Source: a virus (lineage: Duplodnaviria > Caudoviricetes). Taken from it: 35,627 nt of DNA. The notes beneath the pieces were generated by a model. That model saw only the letters and a list, made by a program, of their open reading frames with translations. It was not told the DNA's origin and searched no databases. Both the position numbers and the translations under genes were made by a program. Shown piece by piece: positions 11,427-29,992 of this stretch. Position 1 is the stretch's first letter. Every line of letters begins with the position of its first letter. The stretch spans positions 1-35,627 of IMG/VR virus record IMGVR_UViG_3300036987_000044, one strand, 5' to 3'.

Positions 11427-13091
11427 TTAATTCACATTTACTAATGCTTTTTTATTTTTAGGAAGCTCTTCTTCTTTTGGTATTGGAGCTACTTGTTTAT
11501 AATTACTACCGGGGAATGGGAGTCCGGCTTCTTCAAACAATCTTCTTTCATAAACCATACTTTCGATAAACGATTCAAGGCTCCATCCTCTTTCCGCTAG
11601 ATACTCCTCAACTAGTCCAGCACCTTGACTTATCATAAGTAAGAATGCTTCAGCTTCATCTTTTGGAGATACCCATTGCCATGCGCGACCTTGGAACCAA
11701 GGCTTATTGAATTTATCGAACTTGCTATAAGGCAAATTAATTGCGCCATTCATTAACGCGGCTGAAAGCCATTCGCTAAAATTCCAATTAAGAAACTGAT
11801 CTCTAAACCAAGTGTGAAGAGTTTTCCAAGTATCTCTTTCATCTAAAAGATTAGTACGACTTGAAGTGTAGTTTACATCGCTATAATCATTTGCGAGAGT
11901 TATAAACGCAATCCCTATACCGGTAGCTATACCACGTAAAGCCCACTTTTGAAATTCACCTTCTTTGCCGGAGGGAGATTTATAATCAGCTACAGTTGCT
12001 TCCATACCTTTAGGAACTATAACATCTTCACCCGGCATACTTGTTTGAATCAGTAAGGAAGGATCTTTAACACCATTAGAATCTTTTGGATTATAAGCGC
12101 CGCCTCCAATGTTAGCGGTGTTTAATTCATCACCTACAGCATTATCTTTATATTTATAAATCAACCCTTTATTTGCTGATACTCTAGCATCTACAAGAAT
12201 AGCCTCTTCATAACCACTTAACATTTTTAATCGAATCATTGAAGGAGCGAACCATGGTATTCCACGTACTTGCGAAGGATGTTCTTTAACAAATAAATGT
12301 TTTATTTGAACTTGGCCATACTTATCATAAATAGGGATTCTTTCATTATCTGAAGATGAGAACGAACTATAAAGCATGTTCTGATATGGATTAGATTTTC
12401 TTAACCAATAGGCAACGGGCTTTCTGTAAGGTGTGAGTTCTACTCCCATTATTACAATGTTGCCATTGCTTAGGGTTGTATTTTTTGTTTCATCTAAATA
12501 ATCGCATTCAATCAGCTGAAGAGTATAGCGGAATTTATTATCTACCGTTCGAATTGGTTTTACAAGTATTTCCCCATCTGTAGCAATTGTTTTTAATATA
12601 AGCCCGCATTGTTCGCGGAATGCAATGTCTTCAGTTATTGAATTATATTTAGGAAGTTGCCACTCTTCAAAAGCATCTTGAATTAAAGTATTGGCAAATT
12701 TATCATAACGGGGTATGTATTGTTTTTTATCGGCATCGAATGTTAATTCCATCGCTTTATTTCGGAGGGTAAATCCATCCGGCCCGATAACGTTTTTATC
12801 TAATGCCCTTAAATAACCTTTTGCCCAAGGATCGTTAATTGCAAAATCTCTACTTCTACCAACTAGGCGGCGTAAAGAAATTCTTTGCATACCGGAAATA
12901 GTTTCATAAACATTATTCCAATCGCTTGTAAGGTGTGAAGTTTGCGCACCGGCAAAAGACCTTTCGGAATTCAATTCTTTGTTAAGGTTTTGAACGGTGT
13001 CTTTAAGTTCATTTAATTGCGAAGTTGTTTCATCCAACTTTGTAATTGGAATAAACCCAAACATTTGCCCTATGAATTCAAGCGGTTTCAA
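11427..13091 (-). CDS. Lambda-family portal protein
   Basis: 554 aa; RSRD...NDPWAKG, GVELTPYRKPVAYW, QVRGIPW, DYSDVNYTSSR, WVSPKDE motifs. Confidence 0.95.
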   Translation of the reverse strand: MKPLEFIGQMFGFIPITKLDETTSQLNELKDTVQNLNKELNSERSFAGAQTSHLTSDWNNVYETISGMQRISLRRLVGRSRDFAINDPWAKGYLRALDKNVIGPDGFTLRNKAMELTFDADKKQYIPRYDKFANTLIQDAFEEWQLPKYNSITEDIAFREQCGLILKTIATDGEILVKPIRTVDNKFRYTLQLIECDYLDETKNTTLSNGNIVIMGVELTPYRKPVAYWLRKSNPYQNMLYSSFSSSDNERIPIYDKYGQVQIKHLFVKEHPSQVRGIPWFAPSMIRLKMLSGYEEAILVDARVSANKGLIYKYKDNAVGDELNTANIGGGAYNPKDSNGVKDPSLLIQTSMPGEDVIVPKGMEATVADYKSPSGKEGEFQKWALRGIATGIGIAFITLANDYSDVNYTSSRTNLLDERDTWKTLHTWFRDQFLNWNFSEWLSAALMNGAINLPYSKFDKFNKPWFQGRAWQWVSPKDEAEAFLLMISQGAGLVEEYLAERGWSLESFIESMVYERRLFEEAGLPFPGSNYKQVAPIPKEEELPKNKKALVNVN

Positions 13092-13597
13092 AATGAATTA
13101 ATCATCCTTGGTTGTTTATAATAACCTAGCTTTACATTGTACCGGTGTATAGCTTGTTCAATTTCGAGTAGTGTTTTGAAGGTTGTAGTTTTACCATTTA
13201 CGGAAATGTTCACATAATCGCGGGAGGCTATTTTAATTTTAGCATCCTTAAGCGCGTCTAGAATCTTTTGGTCTTCAGTTCTTACATCTTGCGGATTGTT
13301 TAACAGCGGTTTTATTTCGAGCGCGGTTTCAACAACTGCAACAGTTCCATCGGAATGAGTAAAAAGATATTGAGCTTGAAAACTTCCAAAACCTATTTGC
13401 TTGCTTAAATCGGCATCCACATCAAAATCGAAAGAATCGCCATCTTTAGTAGGAGTTATTTCATGAGGTGAATTAATACCATTGCGGAGATATAAAACGC
13501 AATCATTAACTGAGGCGGGATAATCTGTAAATGTATCAGTCCATTTCCATGTAGCGCCGCTGTATAATGTGAAATCTGAAATCATTTTATAGCCCAA
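13088..13597 (-). CDS. Head completion protein with gpW-like C-terminus (start may be ATG 13585)
   Basis: ISVNGKTTTFKTLLEIEQAI resembles gpW; directly before portal. Confidence 0.6.
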   Translation of the reverse strand: MGYKMISDFTLYSGATWKWTDTFTDYPASVNDCVLYLRNGINSPHEITPTKDGDSFDFDVDADLSKQIGFGSFQAQYLFTHSDGTVAVVETALEIKPLLNNPQDVRTEDQKILDALKDAKIKIASRDYVNISVNGKTTTFKTLLEIEQAIHRYNVKLGYYKQPRMINSF

Positions 13598-13674
13598 TAA
13601 GTTAATGGGATTATTGGTTTATACACCAATTGATTTTTTCTAAGGGCTATTTATTTAAATATTTAGTGATAAAA

Positions 13675-13700
13675 TATGTCAGAGTATGTCAGAGTATGAC
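13675..13700. repeat. 10-bp tandem repeat upstream of the head operon
   Basis: TATGTCAGAG TATGTCAGAG TATGAC in AT-rich intergenic DNA. Confidence 0.8.
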
Positions 13701-13742
13701 ATAAAAAGAGGGAGATAATGAGGGAGGTATTTATTCAGCGTT

Positions 13743-13949
13743 TCATTTTTCTTGATTGTTTTGTGAAACTTTTTCAACAACAATTCTAATCCTAACGTGA
13801 TCAGAGCGGAGGAGTTCTTGCATAGAACTAACAAAATTATCTTGTTCGATATTTGACAAAAAATCATTAATGTAGCGATTAGGCGCGCCAAGGGCACGGC
13901 TCATACTAAGCGCTTTTTCTTTATTTTCTTTCCAGAGTTCAATGTGCAT
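13743..13949 (-). CDS. Small hypothetical protein, possibly DNA-binding
   Basis: 68 aa; GAGG RBS inside the upstream gene end. Confidence 0.6.
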   Translation of the reverse strand: MHIELWKENKEKALSMSRALGAPNRYINDFLSNIEQDNFVSSMQELLRSDHVRIRIVVEKVSQNNQEK

Positions 13950-13951
13950 AC

Positions 13952-14134
13952 TTACCTCTTTATTATTTGTCTGATACGTTTTGTAATTGCTGTAGCTGTG
14001 ACAAGTTTATCATGTTTTTTATTGTTGTAAACAAGAATGAATCTGTTAGTGAGAGTAGGCACAAGTTCTATTTTGTGCCTAGCTCCATTTTTACCTTCCA
14101 AAGTTATTTTCCAAAATGTATCTTGTTTTAGCAT
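13952..14134 (-). CDS. Small basic hypothetical protein
   Basis: 60-aa ORF adjacent to the next gene. Confidence 0.55.
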   Translation of the reverse strand: MLKQDTFWKITLEGKNGARHKIELVPTLTNRFILVYNNKKHDKLVTATAITKRIRQIIKR

Positions 14135-14181
14135 AATGAGTTAAATCAATTCTCCGTGTAATGATTGCGGGTTATGTAGTA

Positions 14182-14210
14182 GTTCTCCGGTCGCAAGGCG
14201 ACCGGAGAAC
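14182..14210. repeat. Perfect 13-bp-stem hairpin bounded by GTT...AAC
   Basis: GTTCTCCGGTCGC-AAG-GCGACCGGAGAAC. Confidence 0.9.
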
Positions 14211-14254
14211 GGACTTGGCGATTATGAGATGAATCGTTACCGTCGCTTTGCGCC

Positions 14255-14519
14255 GGAGAACTAACGATTCATGTCCGATGCCTGTAGGGCTAACTAACAT
14301 GTATAGAAACATTATTAATAAGCCAGATTATCAATTCAACTATTTTCCATATCGCAAATGGGATTGCTACTATACAAATGATTAGCAATAACTTTAAGAG
14401 TGCTGTAATTCCATCACCTATTCCACTTACCATTTAAAACCTCCTTTAGCGTGTTAAATAAAAACCTATGTGTCGTCGTTAACCCTACGGGCACGGCATA
14501 ATCGCCAAGTCCGTTATAG
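14255..14519 (+). mobile_element. attC-like recombination site A
   Basis: R'' GGAGAAC, 5 nt, L'' ATTCATGT ... L' GCATAAT, CGCCAAGTCC, R' GTTATAG. The left arm has unpaired C, T and A; the inner stem is TGCCTGTAGGGCTAAC/GTTAACCCTACGGGCA. Confidence 0.6.
14290..14433 (-). CDS. 47-aa membrane peptide inside the loop of attC-like site A
   Basis: AAGGAGG RBS; MVSGIGDGITALLKLLLIICIVAIPFAIWKIVELIIWLINNVSIHVS; below the ORF-track cutoff. Confidence 0.75.
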   Translation of the reverse strand: MVSGIGDGITALLKLLLIICIVAIPFAIWKIVELIIWLINNVSIHVS

Positions 14520-14533
14520 CGATGCGGTTGCTC

Positions 14534-14911
14534 TCACAATAAACACTTAAAACCAGTATGCTTATCATAAACACTTTTTGTAACTGGTTCGCCCGCTACA
14601 TCGCCAAAAATAAAATACCGCTTTTTCTTACCGTCAATTATTATGTAATGCTCTTCCGCAACCGCACCGTTCGCAGTTTGTTTATCTTGTAGAGCTGGGC
14701 AATCTTTACAATCTTTTAGTGCTTCCTTATATCCGTCTCTAAATTGCTCACTCGCTATAACTACGCAATCAAGCGGAACACTTTCTTTAATTTTTAATTC
14801 AAGCTCTTCTATTATATTATCAATATCATATTTAGAATTGCCAGTGTTGTGTATTTTTATATCCTCACAAATACCTTTTGCATCTGACAATCCATCTTTA
14901 TAGTATTTCAT
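14534..14911 (-). CDS. Hypothetical protein spanning attC-like site B
   Basis: 125 aa; GAGG RBS; residues VPLDCVVIAS are encoded by the L''/R'' boxes. Confidence 0.7.
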   Translation of the reverse strand: MKYYKDGLSDAKGICEDIKIHNTGNSKYDIDNIIEELELKIKESVPLDCVVIASEQFRDGYKEALKDCKDCPALQDKQTANGAVAEEHYIIIDGKKKRYFIFGDVAGEPVTKSVYDKHTGFKCLL

Positions 14912-14973
14912 TTTATGCCTCTGTTAATTTTGATTGTTCTGTTCGTGTCCGCTTATTGCCAACTCTGTTATTT
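14755..14973 (+). mobile_element. attC-like recombination site B
   Basis: R'' CTATAAC, 5 nt, L'' AATCAAGC GGAACAC ... GTGTCC L' GCTTATT, GCCAACTCT, R' GTTATTT. Extra C and extra A in the left arm, as in classical attC. Confidence 0.7.
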
Positions 14974-15361
14974 CAGCTCGCATCCGCTCGCTGAAATAAC
15001 GGCTCGCTTCGCTCTCACCAAACAATTCATAATTCTTTTTTTTATCGCGTCTTGTTGCCGCTGAATTATTTTTATGCTGTTTGCTGTCATATCTCAAATG
15101 ACATCTTTGGCACATTGCTTTTAAGTTTTCCTTTCTGCAATCTGATTCATTATGGTTTAAGTGTGCAACTGTTAAGACTATTTTACCTTTCGCATATTGC
15201 GCCAGTTCACCGTGGCGCTCGATACATCTTCCAGTTGTAGAATGTAAACCACATTCTCCATTACATTCGCACCTACCTTTTGCCCGCTCAAATCTTATTT
15301 CGTTTGAAATCTCTTTCCAATTTTTAGGATACTTATTTTTATTTTCTTTTTTAATTGGCAT
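14924..15361 (-). CDS. HNH-like zinc-binding protein
   Basis: RAKGRCEC...VLTVAHLNH...NLKAMCQRCHLRYD. Confidence 0.8.
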   Translation of the reverse strand: MPIKKENKNKYPKNWKEISNEIRFERAKGRCECNGECGLHSTTGRCIERHGELAQYAKGKIVLTVAHLNHNESDCRKENLKAMCQRCHLRYDSKQHKNNSAATRRDKKKNYELFGESEASRYFSERMRAEITELAISGHEQNNQN

Positions 15362-15376
15362 CTAACAAAACCTCAT

Positions 15377-17317
15377 TTATCTTTTCCAATCGTTCACCCA
15401 ATTTTTATTATTAGTTTGTATCGGTTCTACTTTCGGTTGTTCAAATAATGAACCTTCTTTTAGTTGTTCACTTTTACGGATTAGATCTTCCATTATTTTA
15501 ATGAGGTTTGCTTTGCTAATTCTAAGCGCGGCAAGGTTTTCAACTTCAACATCGAGATCATGATTTTCGCGGCCGGGTATTGGTTCCCATGAAGTTACAT
15601 AAGCTCCCTTTACTAATTTCTTTACCGGCTTTTCAGCGGTTAAACATTGGAAGTATTCAAGATCAGCATAATGATTAAAGTGCATATAACCGGGGCCGGA
15701 TTGTTCTTTGTTCTCAATTTGCAAACGTCTGAAGATCACTTCTTTAGCTGTATCAGTTCCAACAAAGTAGAGGGGAATTCCACCTTTATTATTCATACTT
15801 GGTTTTATTGGAGCTATAGGTTTTCCATGTTCATTAGATCCTTTAGTTCCATAAATGCGCCGGTGTGCTTTATCCTTTACAAATTTATAAGCTTGATCAG
15901 CATGGTGACCTTGTGTATCAATTGCGGCGGCTGAAATTTTAAGTGAAACACCTAATGGATGCTGATAGCTTTTAGTTAATAGCAAAGCATCTAATTCATT
16001 CCAAATATAATCAAGCGCGGGATTGCCCGGTAAAAGAATTCTTTCGAGTAGCCAACTTTGTTCACCAATCCCCCATCCTTTAATTTTTACATGAAGCCAA
16101 CTATCTTGTGTATCAATACCGGCGGTAATGTAACATATTGCACCGGGGATGATAGGATTATCTTCATTAAAATAATTTTCTACACGGGTTAAAAGCTGTT
16201 CTTCTTTTGGCTGTCCGTAATTCGGTTTCCACAATTCAGCGAGTGATTGTGTAATAAATGTTTTTAAGCTAGAAGTTTCACCGGCTTTAGCTTGTTCATT
16301 TGCTTTTATAAACTCCTCTACCATTTTAGGCCATTCAATGGAAGTATAAAGTTTGTTTATATGGAATGTAGGTTTGTTCAATACTTCGGGTTTCTTTTTT
16401 TGCCACAATCCGTTTATCATCATATAATAATGTTGGTCCGGCTCCGGCAAAATCCTTTCAGTACAGTTTTCATTTTTGCATTTATAATACACTGTTTCGG
16501 GTTTATTCAATTCCCATTTTACACCAAAGTTTTCAGAAGGGCCTCCCCATTTTAACCTTTGTATAGTTCCGCAATGAGGGCACGGTACATAATAATATCT
16601 TTGATCTCCATCCTCAAAAACCACCCATATAATTGATTCACCTTCATTGCCCGGAGTTGAAGTTACAACAAGCTTTCTATTCGGGAATGTTTCTTGCATC
16701 TTGCGCGCGGTTTCAAAAGGATCACCCATAAAACCGGAGCGCTTCCATAAATCCACTTCATCAAAGTGAGCATATCTTTTTGAAGCGGATGTTAAATCTC
16801 CGCTAGAGTTTGCACCAACTAAATCGAGAATAACACCGTTAAACTTTTTCATTAAAACGGAATCTATCTTTTTACTTTTTGACGCGCGAACTTCTTCAGC
16901 TATTTTACTTAAGAATTCATTATCTCTAATTGAGGGATCTATTCTCTCGCGGCTGAAACGTCCGGCTTTCATTTTACTTTCACTAATATAAATTATAGGG
17001 CCGGGGTCTTCAGCTATTTCATTGCTGATTGCAATTTGTTGAATTAATGATTTACCCCATTGCCTATTTCCAACAATACCAATTATTTGATTTTGAGGAT
17101 TGCCAATTTCATCTAATATTTCTTTTTGGAATGGTCGAGTAGAATAGGAATATAAACCGCTTTCGTTTGAATATTCGGGAGATAAGTGAAAGTTATTTAT
17201 AGCCCATGTACTTAATGGGATTCTCTCTTTAGTTCTTAATCTTAAAAAAACATTTTCAAGTTTTAGATTAAGATAATTTAGAGCTCTCGGTGAACTTTGT
17301 AATTGTTGATATTCCAT
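15377..17317 (-). CDS. terL: Terminase large subunit (lambda gpA family)
   Basis: 646 aa; Walker A-like RQWGKS, Walker B FDEVD, STP, YYVPCPHCG, nuclease GIDTQ, ENHDLD. Confidence 0.95.
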   Translation of the reverse strand: MEYQQLQSSPRALNYLNLKLENVFLRLRTKERIPLSTWAINNFHLSPEYSNESGLYSYSTRPFQKEILDEIGNPQNQIIGIVGNRQWGKSLIQQIAISNEIAEDPGPIIYISESKMKAGRFSRERIDPSIRDNEFLSKIAEEVRASKSKKIDSVLMKKFNGVILDLVGANSSGDLTSASKRYAHFDEVDLWKRSGFMGDPFETARKMQETFPNRKLVVTSTPGNEGESIIWVVFEDGDQRYYYVPCPHCGTIQRLKWGGPSENFGVKWELNKPETVYYKCKNENCTERILPEPDQHYYMMINGLWQKKKPEVLNKPTFHINKLYTSIEWPKMVEEFIKANEQAKAGETSSLKTFITQSLAELWKPNYGQPKEEQLLTRVENYFNEDNPIIPGAICYITAGIDTQDSWLHVKIKGWGIGEQSWLLERILLPGNPALDYIWNELDALLLTKSYQHPLGVSLKISAAAIDTQGHHADQAYKFVKDKAHRRIYGTKGSNEHGKPIAPIKPSMNNKGGIPLYFVGTDTAKEVIFRRLQIENKEQSGPGYMHFNHYADLEYFQCLTAEKPVKKLVKGAYVTSWEPIPGRENHDLDVEVENLAALRISKANLIKIMEDLIRKSEQLKEGSLFEQPKVEPIQTNNKNWVNDWKR

Positions 17318-28586: not shown

Positions 28587-29024
28587 ATGAATAAAAAACT
28601 TGAAATAGGCGCTAAATTAAAAGAATTTGCCAAAAAAAAATTTGGTAGTATTGCCGCTTTAGAACGCGAATTAAACAAACCCGCCGCCTATTTTCAAAAT
28701 TATATCAATGGCCGGAGTTATTTAGGTGGCGATATTCTATGTCAATTGTCAGAATTAGGGTGTGATATAAATTGGCTGTTAACCGGAGAAAAAGGAGATA
28801 AACATATAATAAAAGAACCGGAGGGGCAATACAATATGGGTGAGTACACAAACCTTTTTGCGGAGGTACATGCACTTAGAGAAGAGATCAAAGAATATAA
28901 GATTATGATTTTTGACCTTCAGCGCGCAAATGAAAGACTTACAAAAGAGAATAAATCTCTTACCAAAACCAATACCGAATTAAAGAACGAACTAATCGAA
29001 ATTCAAAAACAACAAACAAATTGA
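28587..29024 (+). CDS. CI-like XRE repressor with coiled-coil C-terminus
   Basis: SIAALERELN...YINGRS...GCDINWLLTGE; no S24 peptidase domain visible. Confidence 0.8.
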   Translation: MNKKLEIGAKLKEFAKKKFGSIAALERELNKPAAYFQNYINGRSYLGGDILCQLSELGCDINWLLTGEKGDKHIIKEPEGQYNMGEYTNLFAEVHALREEIKEYKIMIFDLQRANERLTKENKSLTKTNTELKNELIEIQKQQTN

Positions 29025-29030
29025 GGGGTT

Positions 29031-29483
29031 ATGAAAACCTTATTAGCAATTAGCATTTTAGCTTTACTTACCTCATGTACAACTATGCAACCAATTACAA
29101 GTGAACAGAAACATCATGAAAGAGTTTTAACCCATGAACTAACAAAAGATCAAGCCTATGATGCCGCAATAGAATGGATTGCAAAAAAGTTTAATAGCGC
29201 AAATGACGCGGTTCAATTAAAAGATAAAGAGAATGGTAAAATTATTATTCAAGGTGTAGGCTCCTATTATTATGATGCTCTTCAATCTGTCCTACTAAAT
29301 TACAGATATACAATGACCGTGCGGGTTGCTGATAATAAAGTTAAATTCGAATTTGATACACTAAGCTTAACTAGCGGTAGAGATATTCAGCAAGGTGACG
29401 TTTATAAAATACAAGCTGATTATAATTTGATAATGGAAAACATGTTGCAATCATTTAAGAATTATAAGAATGATGGGTTTTGA
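29031..29483 (+). CDS. Lipoprotein (DUF4468-like), superinfection exclusion candidate
   Basis: LTS-C lipobox; WIAKKFNSA...QLKDKENGKIIIQG. Confidence 0.7.
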   Translation: MKTLLAISILALLTSCTTMQPITSEQKHHERVLTHELTKDQAYDAAIEWIAKKFNSANDAVQLKDKENGKIIIQGVGSYYYDALQSVLLNYRYTMTVRVADNKVKFEFDTLSLTSGRDIQQGDVYKIQADYNLIMENMLQSFKNYKNDGF

Positions 29484-29992
29484 TGAAACTTCGCAAAAGT
29501 ACACTACAAACAAAAGCGGCTCCGGCTTTCTATGAGAAAGTCGGGGTGTATATAGAACAATGGTTAAACAGTAACCATAAACTAAGACTTCGACCGGGTA
29601 CACAAAAAGAACTTTCGAGCGAATTAAAAAAATATGGAGTAGTCGCTACCCCTTCGCAACTCAGCCGCTACATAAATGGAATTAACGAAATGCCCGCGCG
29701 AGTTGTAAATGTTATAATAGATCAGCTAGGTTTTAAGGCACAAACCTTCTCAGATTATTACATAAAACAAAGGGAGAATATTAACCTAGAACTTCTCACA
29801 AAAGAAGATCTCTATAAACTGATAGCGGAGCAAACACTTATAATAAAAGAATGGAAGGATATCGCCAATAATTATAGCGGTAGAGTGCACAAGCTTTTAG
29901 ATGATAATGTAGCGTTAGTTAAAGCTATGCACAAAAGTATATCCGAAAATGAAGAAATGCGGAAAGAGATTAGAAGCTTAAAAAGAGATTAA
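29480..29992 (+). CDS. Second XRE-HTH plus coiled-coil protein
   Basis: TQKELSSEL...TPSQLSRYING..MP. Confidence 0.7.
   Translation: MMKLRKSTLQTKAAPAFYEKVGVYIEQWLNSNHKLRLRPGTQKELSSELKKYGVVATPSQLSRYINGINEMPARVVNVIIDQLGFKAQTFSDYYIKQRENINLELLTKEDLYKLIAEQTLIIKEWKDIANNYSGRVHKLLDDNVALVKAMHKSISENEEMRKEIRSLKRD

Follow-up and report, generated by a model that had tools for sequence, protein, structure and literature searches.

An integrase-less attC cassette array in a complete phage genome, with a cassette that carries an inverted copy of its own attC site

We describe an array of attC cassettes in the head-gene region of a complete phage genome which lacks an integron integrase. It appears to behave as an integron cassette array operating in trans; it falls short of a complete integron, and its cassettes depart from the canonical form. 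The explanation which best fits the data as a whole, and which we consider probable, is an array served by the integron integrase (IntI) of the host, in which one of the cassettes, cassette A, is a derived, self-inverted form. For the first part alone, a cassette hotspot served by IntI in trans, our confidence is high: the evidence comprises the geometry of the sites, their covariation with those of the host, the start of three arrays of different content from the same base and the absence of a phage integrase. Integrase-less attC arrays in phages were already known. What stands out here are the base-exact replacement of the array and the self-inverted modules.

The phage array, its attC sites and its genes

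The stretch of DNA analysed here, called the window, is a whole phage genome of 35,627 bases with a 39-nt direct terminal repeat and a completeness rated at 100%. Its head genes lie on the - strand and include the terminase large subunit, an HNH endonuclease, the array, two small ORFs, the head-tail joining gene and the portal. A profile search for the tyrosine-integrase family PF00589 gave zero matches across the complete genome, as expected from the sequence-only reading, which had proposed an attC-like array in a phage without an integron integrase. Likewise, no integrase is present among the 55 window ORFs compared with PHROGs; in cis to the array, intI is absent and no attI was recognised by comparison with host loci. 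A repressor-like gene occurs in a divergent three-gene block (28587-29992), though no integrase was found in the complete genome.

The metagenome runs containing the stretch are labelled groundwater and coal, and no RNA dataset is listed among them. Runs X4-X6 and X8-X10, whose studies are possibly one campaign and of which X4 is possibly the source, have contigs in which the array shows 0 differing letters; contigs from X6 and X8, neither marked as a possible source, span the nested repeat of cassette A. An assembly artefact private to this record was rejected because the array is reproduced letter for letter in the contigs of these six other runs. The features of the region are as follows (window coordinates).

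13088..14134, - strand: left flank of the array, with a 60-aa ORF, a 68-aa ORF and the head-tail joining gene (13088-13597)
14178..14184, + strand: array entry site; crossover probably between G14182 and T14183
14182..14210, no strand: perfect hairpin P_A at the 5' end of cassette A, 13-bp arms running from GTT to AAC, 3-nt loop
14208..14239, - strand: copy of attC A in inverted orientation and without the loop; it is predicted to prevent the attC from folding
14240..14261, + strand: small body hairpin of cassette A
14259..14515, + strand: attC site A, 257 nt, unpaired C14270, a whole gene in its loop
14290..14433, - strand: 47-aa ORF within the site A loop; it has a ribosome-binding site and a single hydrophobic segment
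14514..14967, + strand: cassette B, 454 nt, with complementary ends; as a circle, it is predicted to form a recombinogenic attC fold
14534..14911, - strand: 125-aa ORF with its start in the site B loop, continuing through the left arm of that site
14759..14969, + strand: attC site B, 211 nt, unpaired C14770 and a second unpaired A
14924..15361, - strand: HNH endonuclease gene, right flank of the array
14967..15000, no strand: perfect hairpin P_last, 11-bp arms, 12-nt loop, no attC after it
15377..17317, - strand: terminase large subunit, flanking the array

Both sites show the layout described in the sequence-only reading (AAC, 5 nt, L'', long loop, L', spacer, GTT), and every one of the ten strings which it quoted was found where it had placed them. 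In site A, the AAC (14259-14261) is followed by a 5-nt spacer and L'' (14267-14273), and a right spacer of 10 nt leads to the GTT (14513-14515). In site B, the AAC (14759-14761) is again followed by a 5-nt spacer, and the right spacer before the GTT (14967-14969) is 9 nt. The central spacers are unequal in both sites (5 versus 9-10 nt), the terminal loops are long and all 9 R- and L-box pairs are Watson-Crick (6/6 in the L box). The boxes fit the GTT/AAC core only, as had been noted: 1-2 of the 4 R-box flanking positions match the consensus in A and B, versus 3-4 of 4 in seven host sites described below. Site B is the only match of a strict scan in the 35.6 kb, where shuffled sequences give 0.05-0.2 matches each (20 shuffles per threshold), and none of 12 shuffles reaches its score of 36.5 in a scored scan. 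Because of three close bulges, site A was not picked up by the strict or the scored scan of the window; its support comes from folding and from homologous arms in an Ignavibacteria genome (G076).

At 211 and 257 nt, the two sites are longer than the attC lengths of 57-141 bp given in PMC5371416. This range is not binding in this lineage, since host-family sites measure 157-183 nt; the long loops, described earlier as unusually large, are in part a trait of the lineage. With two attC sites 244 nt apart and no intI in the complete genome, the array is a CALIN (an integrase-less attC cluster). Canonical cassettes carry a top-strand ORF upstream of attC. Here, both ORFs are antisense and start in the loops; a late - strand phage transcript would therefore read them. 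The 47-aa ORF lies with its ribosome-binding site wholly within the loop of site A and has a hydrophobic segment with a mean hydropathy of 2.6 over 19 aa. Homologue searches with the 47-aa and with the 125-aa ORF each returned only the query itself.

The array reading proposed from the sequence alone largely holds but was incomplete, as it had overlooked the second perfect hairpin (14182-14210), the inverted copy of attC A and the two - strand ORFs. It had also placed the unit 14967-15000 between sites, and this is wrong since no attC comes after it. This hairpin, P_last, is likely what is left of the 5' end of an older cassette. On the - strand, the stretch 14140-14175 upstream of the entry site shows a weak likeness to the left arm of site B (an AAC, then a short spacer and AAT C) and is possibly a relic site of opposite polarity.

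Replacement of the array and the likely host integron

A closely related phage contig (L001) is 99.3% identical to the window over 1640 nt on one flank and 98.5% identical over 413 nt on the other, and carries a different 1.6-kb array between them. The first differing base comes right after 14184, that is, after the GTT at 14182-14184. A contig from a further run, X11, whose flanks show 34 differences in 1185 nt and 83 in 949 nt (97% and 91% identity), connects 14184 to 15019 through 636 other letters. The sequence-only reading had suggested examining related phages for a change of content exactly at G^TT; L001 and X11 both break there on the left side, which indirectly supports recombination by IntI at G^TT. 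The right-hand junction is variable (14997 in L001, 15019 in X11). In L001, the last attC adjoins the end of the HNH gene and P_last is absent at the corresponding place, while in the window this hairpin lies in between; the HNH reading frame is 24 codons longer in the window than in L001 and the extra part passes through P_last. The first L001 hairpin has 21 bases in common with the end of the HNH gene, for which reason HNH may itself be the remnant of an old cassette.

A distant relative (L002, terminase 49% identical) carries three sites at this locus, alike in polarity, with the same seven entry bases ahead of them and other genes; its middle site has AAT in place of AAC. No cassette is shared among the window, L001 and L002 arrays, so reshuffling of a single unit was not seen. 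Neither excision nor inversion joints were detected in contigs of the seven runs with the phage; as contigs drop rare variants and depth ranged from 2 to 39, this absence carries no weight. The host integron integrase would likely insert cassettes at GTT 14182-14184, where the relatives diverge.

Two features lie near the array. One is a 34-base stretch containing short tandem repeats, upstream of the head-tail joining gene (13679-13713, and L002:9719-9752); it is 91% identical in phages which are otherwise about 65% alike, and possibly has a regulatory role. The other is a second variable slot, which separates the 68-aa ORF from the head-tail joining gene (L001:3654-3969). It holds an 86-aa ORF in L001 and other sequence in the window, and has no attC features.

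The L001 array comprises three further modules with unrelated cargo.

L001:1642-3243: modules M1-M3, with 190-aa (weak MmcB-like match), 77-aa, 70-aa and 50-aa ORFs

The 77-aa ORF of the second module (L001:2522-2755) shares 77% identity with a gene of another viral contig (L179:1501-1719) near which there is neither attC nor hairpin, and none of seven homologues of this ORF has an attC or a hairpin close by. It is possible that an ordinary phage gene was captured into a cassette here.

The distant relative L002 is a prophage in a genome titled Melioribacteraceae (G001), which encodes two IntI above the TIGR02249 cut-off. IntI over this cut-off were found in 61 of 121 genomes of the family and in 0 of 14 controls. 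The chromosomal array of the same genome (G001:C14) has seven attC sites, 157-183 nt long, whose geometry is that of site B: AAC, 5 nt, C at +9, a bulge at +16, a 9-nt spacer and GTT, together with long loops and complementary cassette ends as in the phage. The differences are that host cassette ORFs are sense, ending -2 to 36 nt before AAC in all seven, whereas those of the phage are antisense, and that, unlike in integrons, no intI or recognisable attI adjoins the phage array. We compared site B, two L002 sites and the seven host sites (n=10). In this set, 105 of 120 stem cells are paired and 9 of 12 columns have two or more pair types, a count which is partly circular because the scan that supplied 9 of the 10 demanded pairing. 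The unpaired C at +9 is present in all ten and the A at +16 in nine. The stems thus covary and the extrahelical base is kept, as an attC array should show by the sequence-only reading, with the same partial circularity. Judging from a relative with 60% portal identity, the window phage likely infects Ignavibacteria, and the Melioribacteraceae, positive in 61 of 121 genomes, are likely its host family.

The host intI locus (L061:10800-12290, in G001:C14) is arranged with intI in the same direction as its cassettes and an 86-aa ORF breaking into its 3' end; no attI was recognised there. In another contig, two compact attC-like sites of about 50 nt (L053:42-91 and 2728-2779) lie upstream of a distant terminase homologue.

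The array might instead act in RNA, in processing, stability or control of translation, its genes having arrived by homologous or illegitimate recombination. The hairpins do flank small genes of a transcribed operon and one loop contains a ribosome-binding site. Such a role would leave unexplained that the AAC/GTT boxes, the +9 bulge and the 9-nt spacer are the same as in the host integron attC sites, and that the breakpoints fall at G^TT; moreover, no Rfam family reaches its gathering score and no array hairpin scores as a terminator. We consider this reading very improbable. A known RNA family was rejected as well, the two weak matches to miRNA models being far under the gathering score.

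Cassette A and the self-inverted modules

Cassette A (14183-14513) consists, in order, of a perfect GTT...AAC hairpin, an inverted and shortened attC copy, a small body hairpin and the attC site. In the inverted copy, 19/19 bases are complementary to 14497-14515 and, after a 2-nt joint, 11/11 are complementary to 14262-14272. The 3' arm of the small body hairpin equals that of P_A minus one base, which falls 7 nt before AAC. The same order (hairpin, inverted attC, body, attC) recurs in all three L001 modules and in one module of G076, giving five modules in three genomes, all phages or prophage and two of them near-identical phages. The G076 module lies in the early region of a prophage, has arms like those of site A and also holds a gene in its loop. 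The inverted repeat is perfect over 14-20 nt in all five; in all five, too, the 3' arm of the first hairpin is that of the body with one base added, at 7 nt before AAC (in M3, at 7 or 8). The outer repeats and hairpins are perfect and the inner copy is decayed. The small loops are exact reverse complements in G076 and one base off in cassette A; this complementarity is absent in M1-M3. The bulge on the top strand is G, not C, in M1 and G076, and lies at +8 in M1. Next to the self-inverted module of G076 (L186:1528-2060, G076:C2) are a 138-aa ORF, flanked on both sides by a direct repeat of about 25 bases, and a compact attC-like hairpin.

Searches for further modules returned little outside this lineage. 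Among 248 sequences (1.46 Mb with overlaps), 68 hairpin calls were made and only the five distinct modules have a repeat of at least 11 nt. No such design was found in L002 or in the vicinity of the seven chromosomal attC sites of the host. Motif scans of viral contigs gave only the phage's own lineage or chance matches: one locus each for two patterns (the L002 contig and L001), 5 loci for a third (1 of its own lineage and 4 near-identical, unrelated ones) and 55 for a fourth (1 of its own lineage, none with attC at the match). BLAST of the array against Ignavibacteria genomes gave short, weak matches only, in 110 of 401. An arm of site A, with 2 mismatches allowed, occurs in 75 of the 401, near the control rate, with one exact match, in G076. 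The hairpin patterns occur in 2 of 401 Ignavibacteria genomes, G076 being real and G342 an intergenic match without a cassette, and in 23 of 261 in a further search, where no terminal repeat reached 11. No modules were found around 11 of 13 portal matches and 41 further terminase loci in Ignavibacteria genomes, and 50,697 annotated phage records gave no match. A Polaribacter phage record was not matched by the attC scan used here, which shows that the scan is tuned to this lineage.

The consequences of the inverted copy were estimated with pfold, the probability that the R and L boxes fold (the measure of PMC5371416), an equilibrium figure which ignores the order of folding at the replication fork. 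For site A, pfold is 1.8e-2 alone, 1.5e-14 with the cassette body and 6.5e-18 in the circle; it returns to 1.7e-4 to 1.4e-2 once the inverted copy alone is shuffled. The inverted copy thus cuts the predicted recombinogenic folding of A about 10^12-fold. The corresponding drop is 10^8 to 10^11-fold for M1-M3 of L001 and 4x10^9-fold for G076. For site B, pfold is 0.20 alone, 0.66 in the circle and 3e-4 integrated, and cassette B is predicted to be an ordinary, mobile unit. Site B has no bottom-strand folding preference (0.196 vs 0.192); this preference is present in just 4 of the 7 host sites.

In the competing fold of cassette A, the remnant pairs with both attC arms, leaving neither an unpaired spacer nor an extrahelical base. 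A lock is predicted because this fold resembles a site with a paired spacer and no extrahelical bases which, according to PMC2727003, recombined 8.5x10^4-fold less. On these folding estimates, the chances are about equal that the inverted copy does or does not lock cassette A and make it practically non-excisable. The swappable array of the sequence-only reading would accordingly be narrowed rather than lost: not every unit should be freely exchangeable, because the inverted attC copy of cassette A is predicted to block it.

The hairpin and inverted-repeat modules could, on the contrary, be an active second class of substrate: a recombinase would use the fully paired fold, a perfect GTT/AAC duplex alike on both strands, and the modules could insert or flip in either orientation between palindromes. 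The arrays are wholly different between 99% identical phages though the L001 modules and cassette A share a design, and perfect outer repeats and hairpins around a decayed inner copy suggest upkeep. In addition, sites lacking the extrahelical bases alone can recombine on both strands (PMC5027507). These points are met by the 8.5x10^4-fold loss caused by spacer pairing together with loss of the extrahelical bases (PMC2727003), by the intact classical attC with bulges retained in every module, by the same polarity relative to transcription in 5/5 modules and by the lack of a tyrosine recombinase in the phage. We judge active use of the duplex distinctly unlikely.

It is also conceivable that the inverted copies are accidental and have no selected role, having been left by template switching at a folded attC, or by an IntI exchange of top by bottom strand, in an ordinary, decaying CALIN. 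Top-strand recombination and inverted insertion occur at a low rate (PMC5027507), the inner halves are decayed, and the design is missing near the seven host attC sites and in L002. Yet the order of the parts and the position of the one-base indel are constant in 5/5 modules of unrelated sequence, and IntI exchange at AA^C is disfavoured because it should give an imperfect first hairpin and all are perfect. An accidental origin seems unlikely to us.

We return to cassette A as a derived form of a host-IntI cassette. A circle may have duplicated itself head-to-head through a hairpin-ended intermediate turning at the small body palindrome; the resulting dimer would have integrated through its attC and the inverted half would then have been trimmed by deletion. 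This route is put forward tentatively, as somewhat more likely wrong than right. A circle opened at the body palindrome, with its ends sealed, would give at one end a perfect hairpin whose two arms both have the extra base, and predicts that the other end lacks the extra base and that the loops are complementary. All five modules agree with the first two predictions, within what the decay of the inner arm lets us judge; the third holds exactly in G076 only.

Opening of a circle at a small palindrome, by a telomere resolvase or by cruciform resolution, leaves two perfect hairpin ends with complementary loops. G076 shows the same pattern of products, and the likeness to such hairpin-ended intermediates is one of product pattern alone; no gene of the telomere-resolvase type was found among the 55 window ORFs scanned. 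The palindrome formed on circularising a module was rejected as proof of a unit of movement, any module with a palindrome and terminal repeats giving one.

Relation to known elements and significance

The basic array is of a known kind, since integrase-less phage attC clusters have been published. Qi et al. 2023 reported 17 such clusters (CALIN) in 10,705 phage genomes, and IntI1 recombined 5 of the 6 phage attC sites tested (PMC9892861). The array described here shares with them two or more attC sites, the lack of intI and a phage location. Compared with the clusters as presented in the accessible part of that article, it differs in having sites of 211-257 nt (up to 637 in L001), genes which are antisense and start in or lie wholly inside the loop, a fixed entry base and inverted self-copies. 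IntI also inserts cassettes at double-stranded GWT sites outside integrons, attG, giving SALINs (bioRxiv 10.1101/2022.09.11.507474). The entry GTT fits the GWT motif; in contrast to attG/SALINs as far as that preprint was available, one site is reused here in four phage lineages and collects several cassettes. Within the mostly open-access literature covered, we found no account of cassettes carrying their own attC inverted, nor of genes inside attC loops.

Taken jointly, these elements would have Ignavibacteria phages running an integrase-less integron platform, in which a programmed, hairpin-ended, head-to-head dimer writes an antisense attC copy, locking the cassette against the host integrase and offering its cargo in both orientations. 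In this full form the proposal is doubtful. If true, it would explain how reversed phage cassettes arise from host-type ones and how an ordinary phage gene such as the 77-aa ORF of L001 came to be packaged.

The array provides base-exact natural evidence that an integrase-less phage refills one site with attC cassettes, and a host family can be named with a fitting IntI and a fitting attC geometry. The inverted self-copy would represent a built-in antisense switch on a single-stranded recombination site. The lock, if real, adds a way to regulate cassette mobility, and the self-inverted modules may then offer a candidate route for how cassettes are made and how phage cassettes gain reversed genes.
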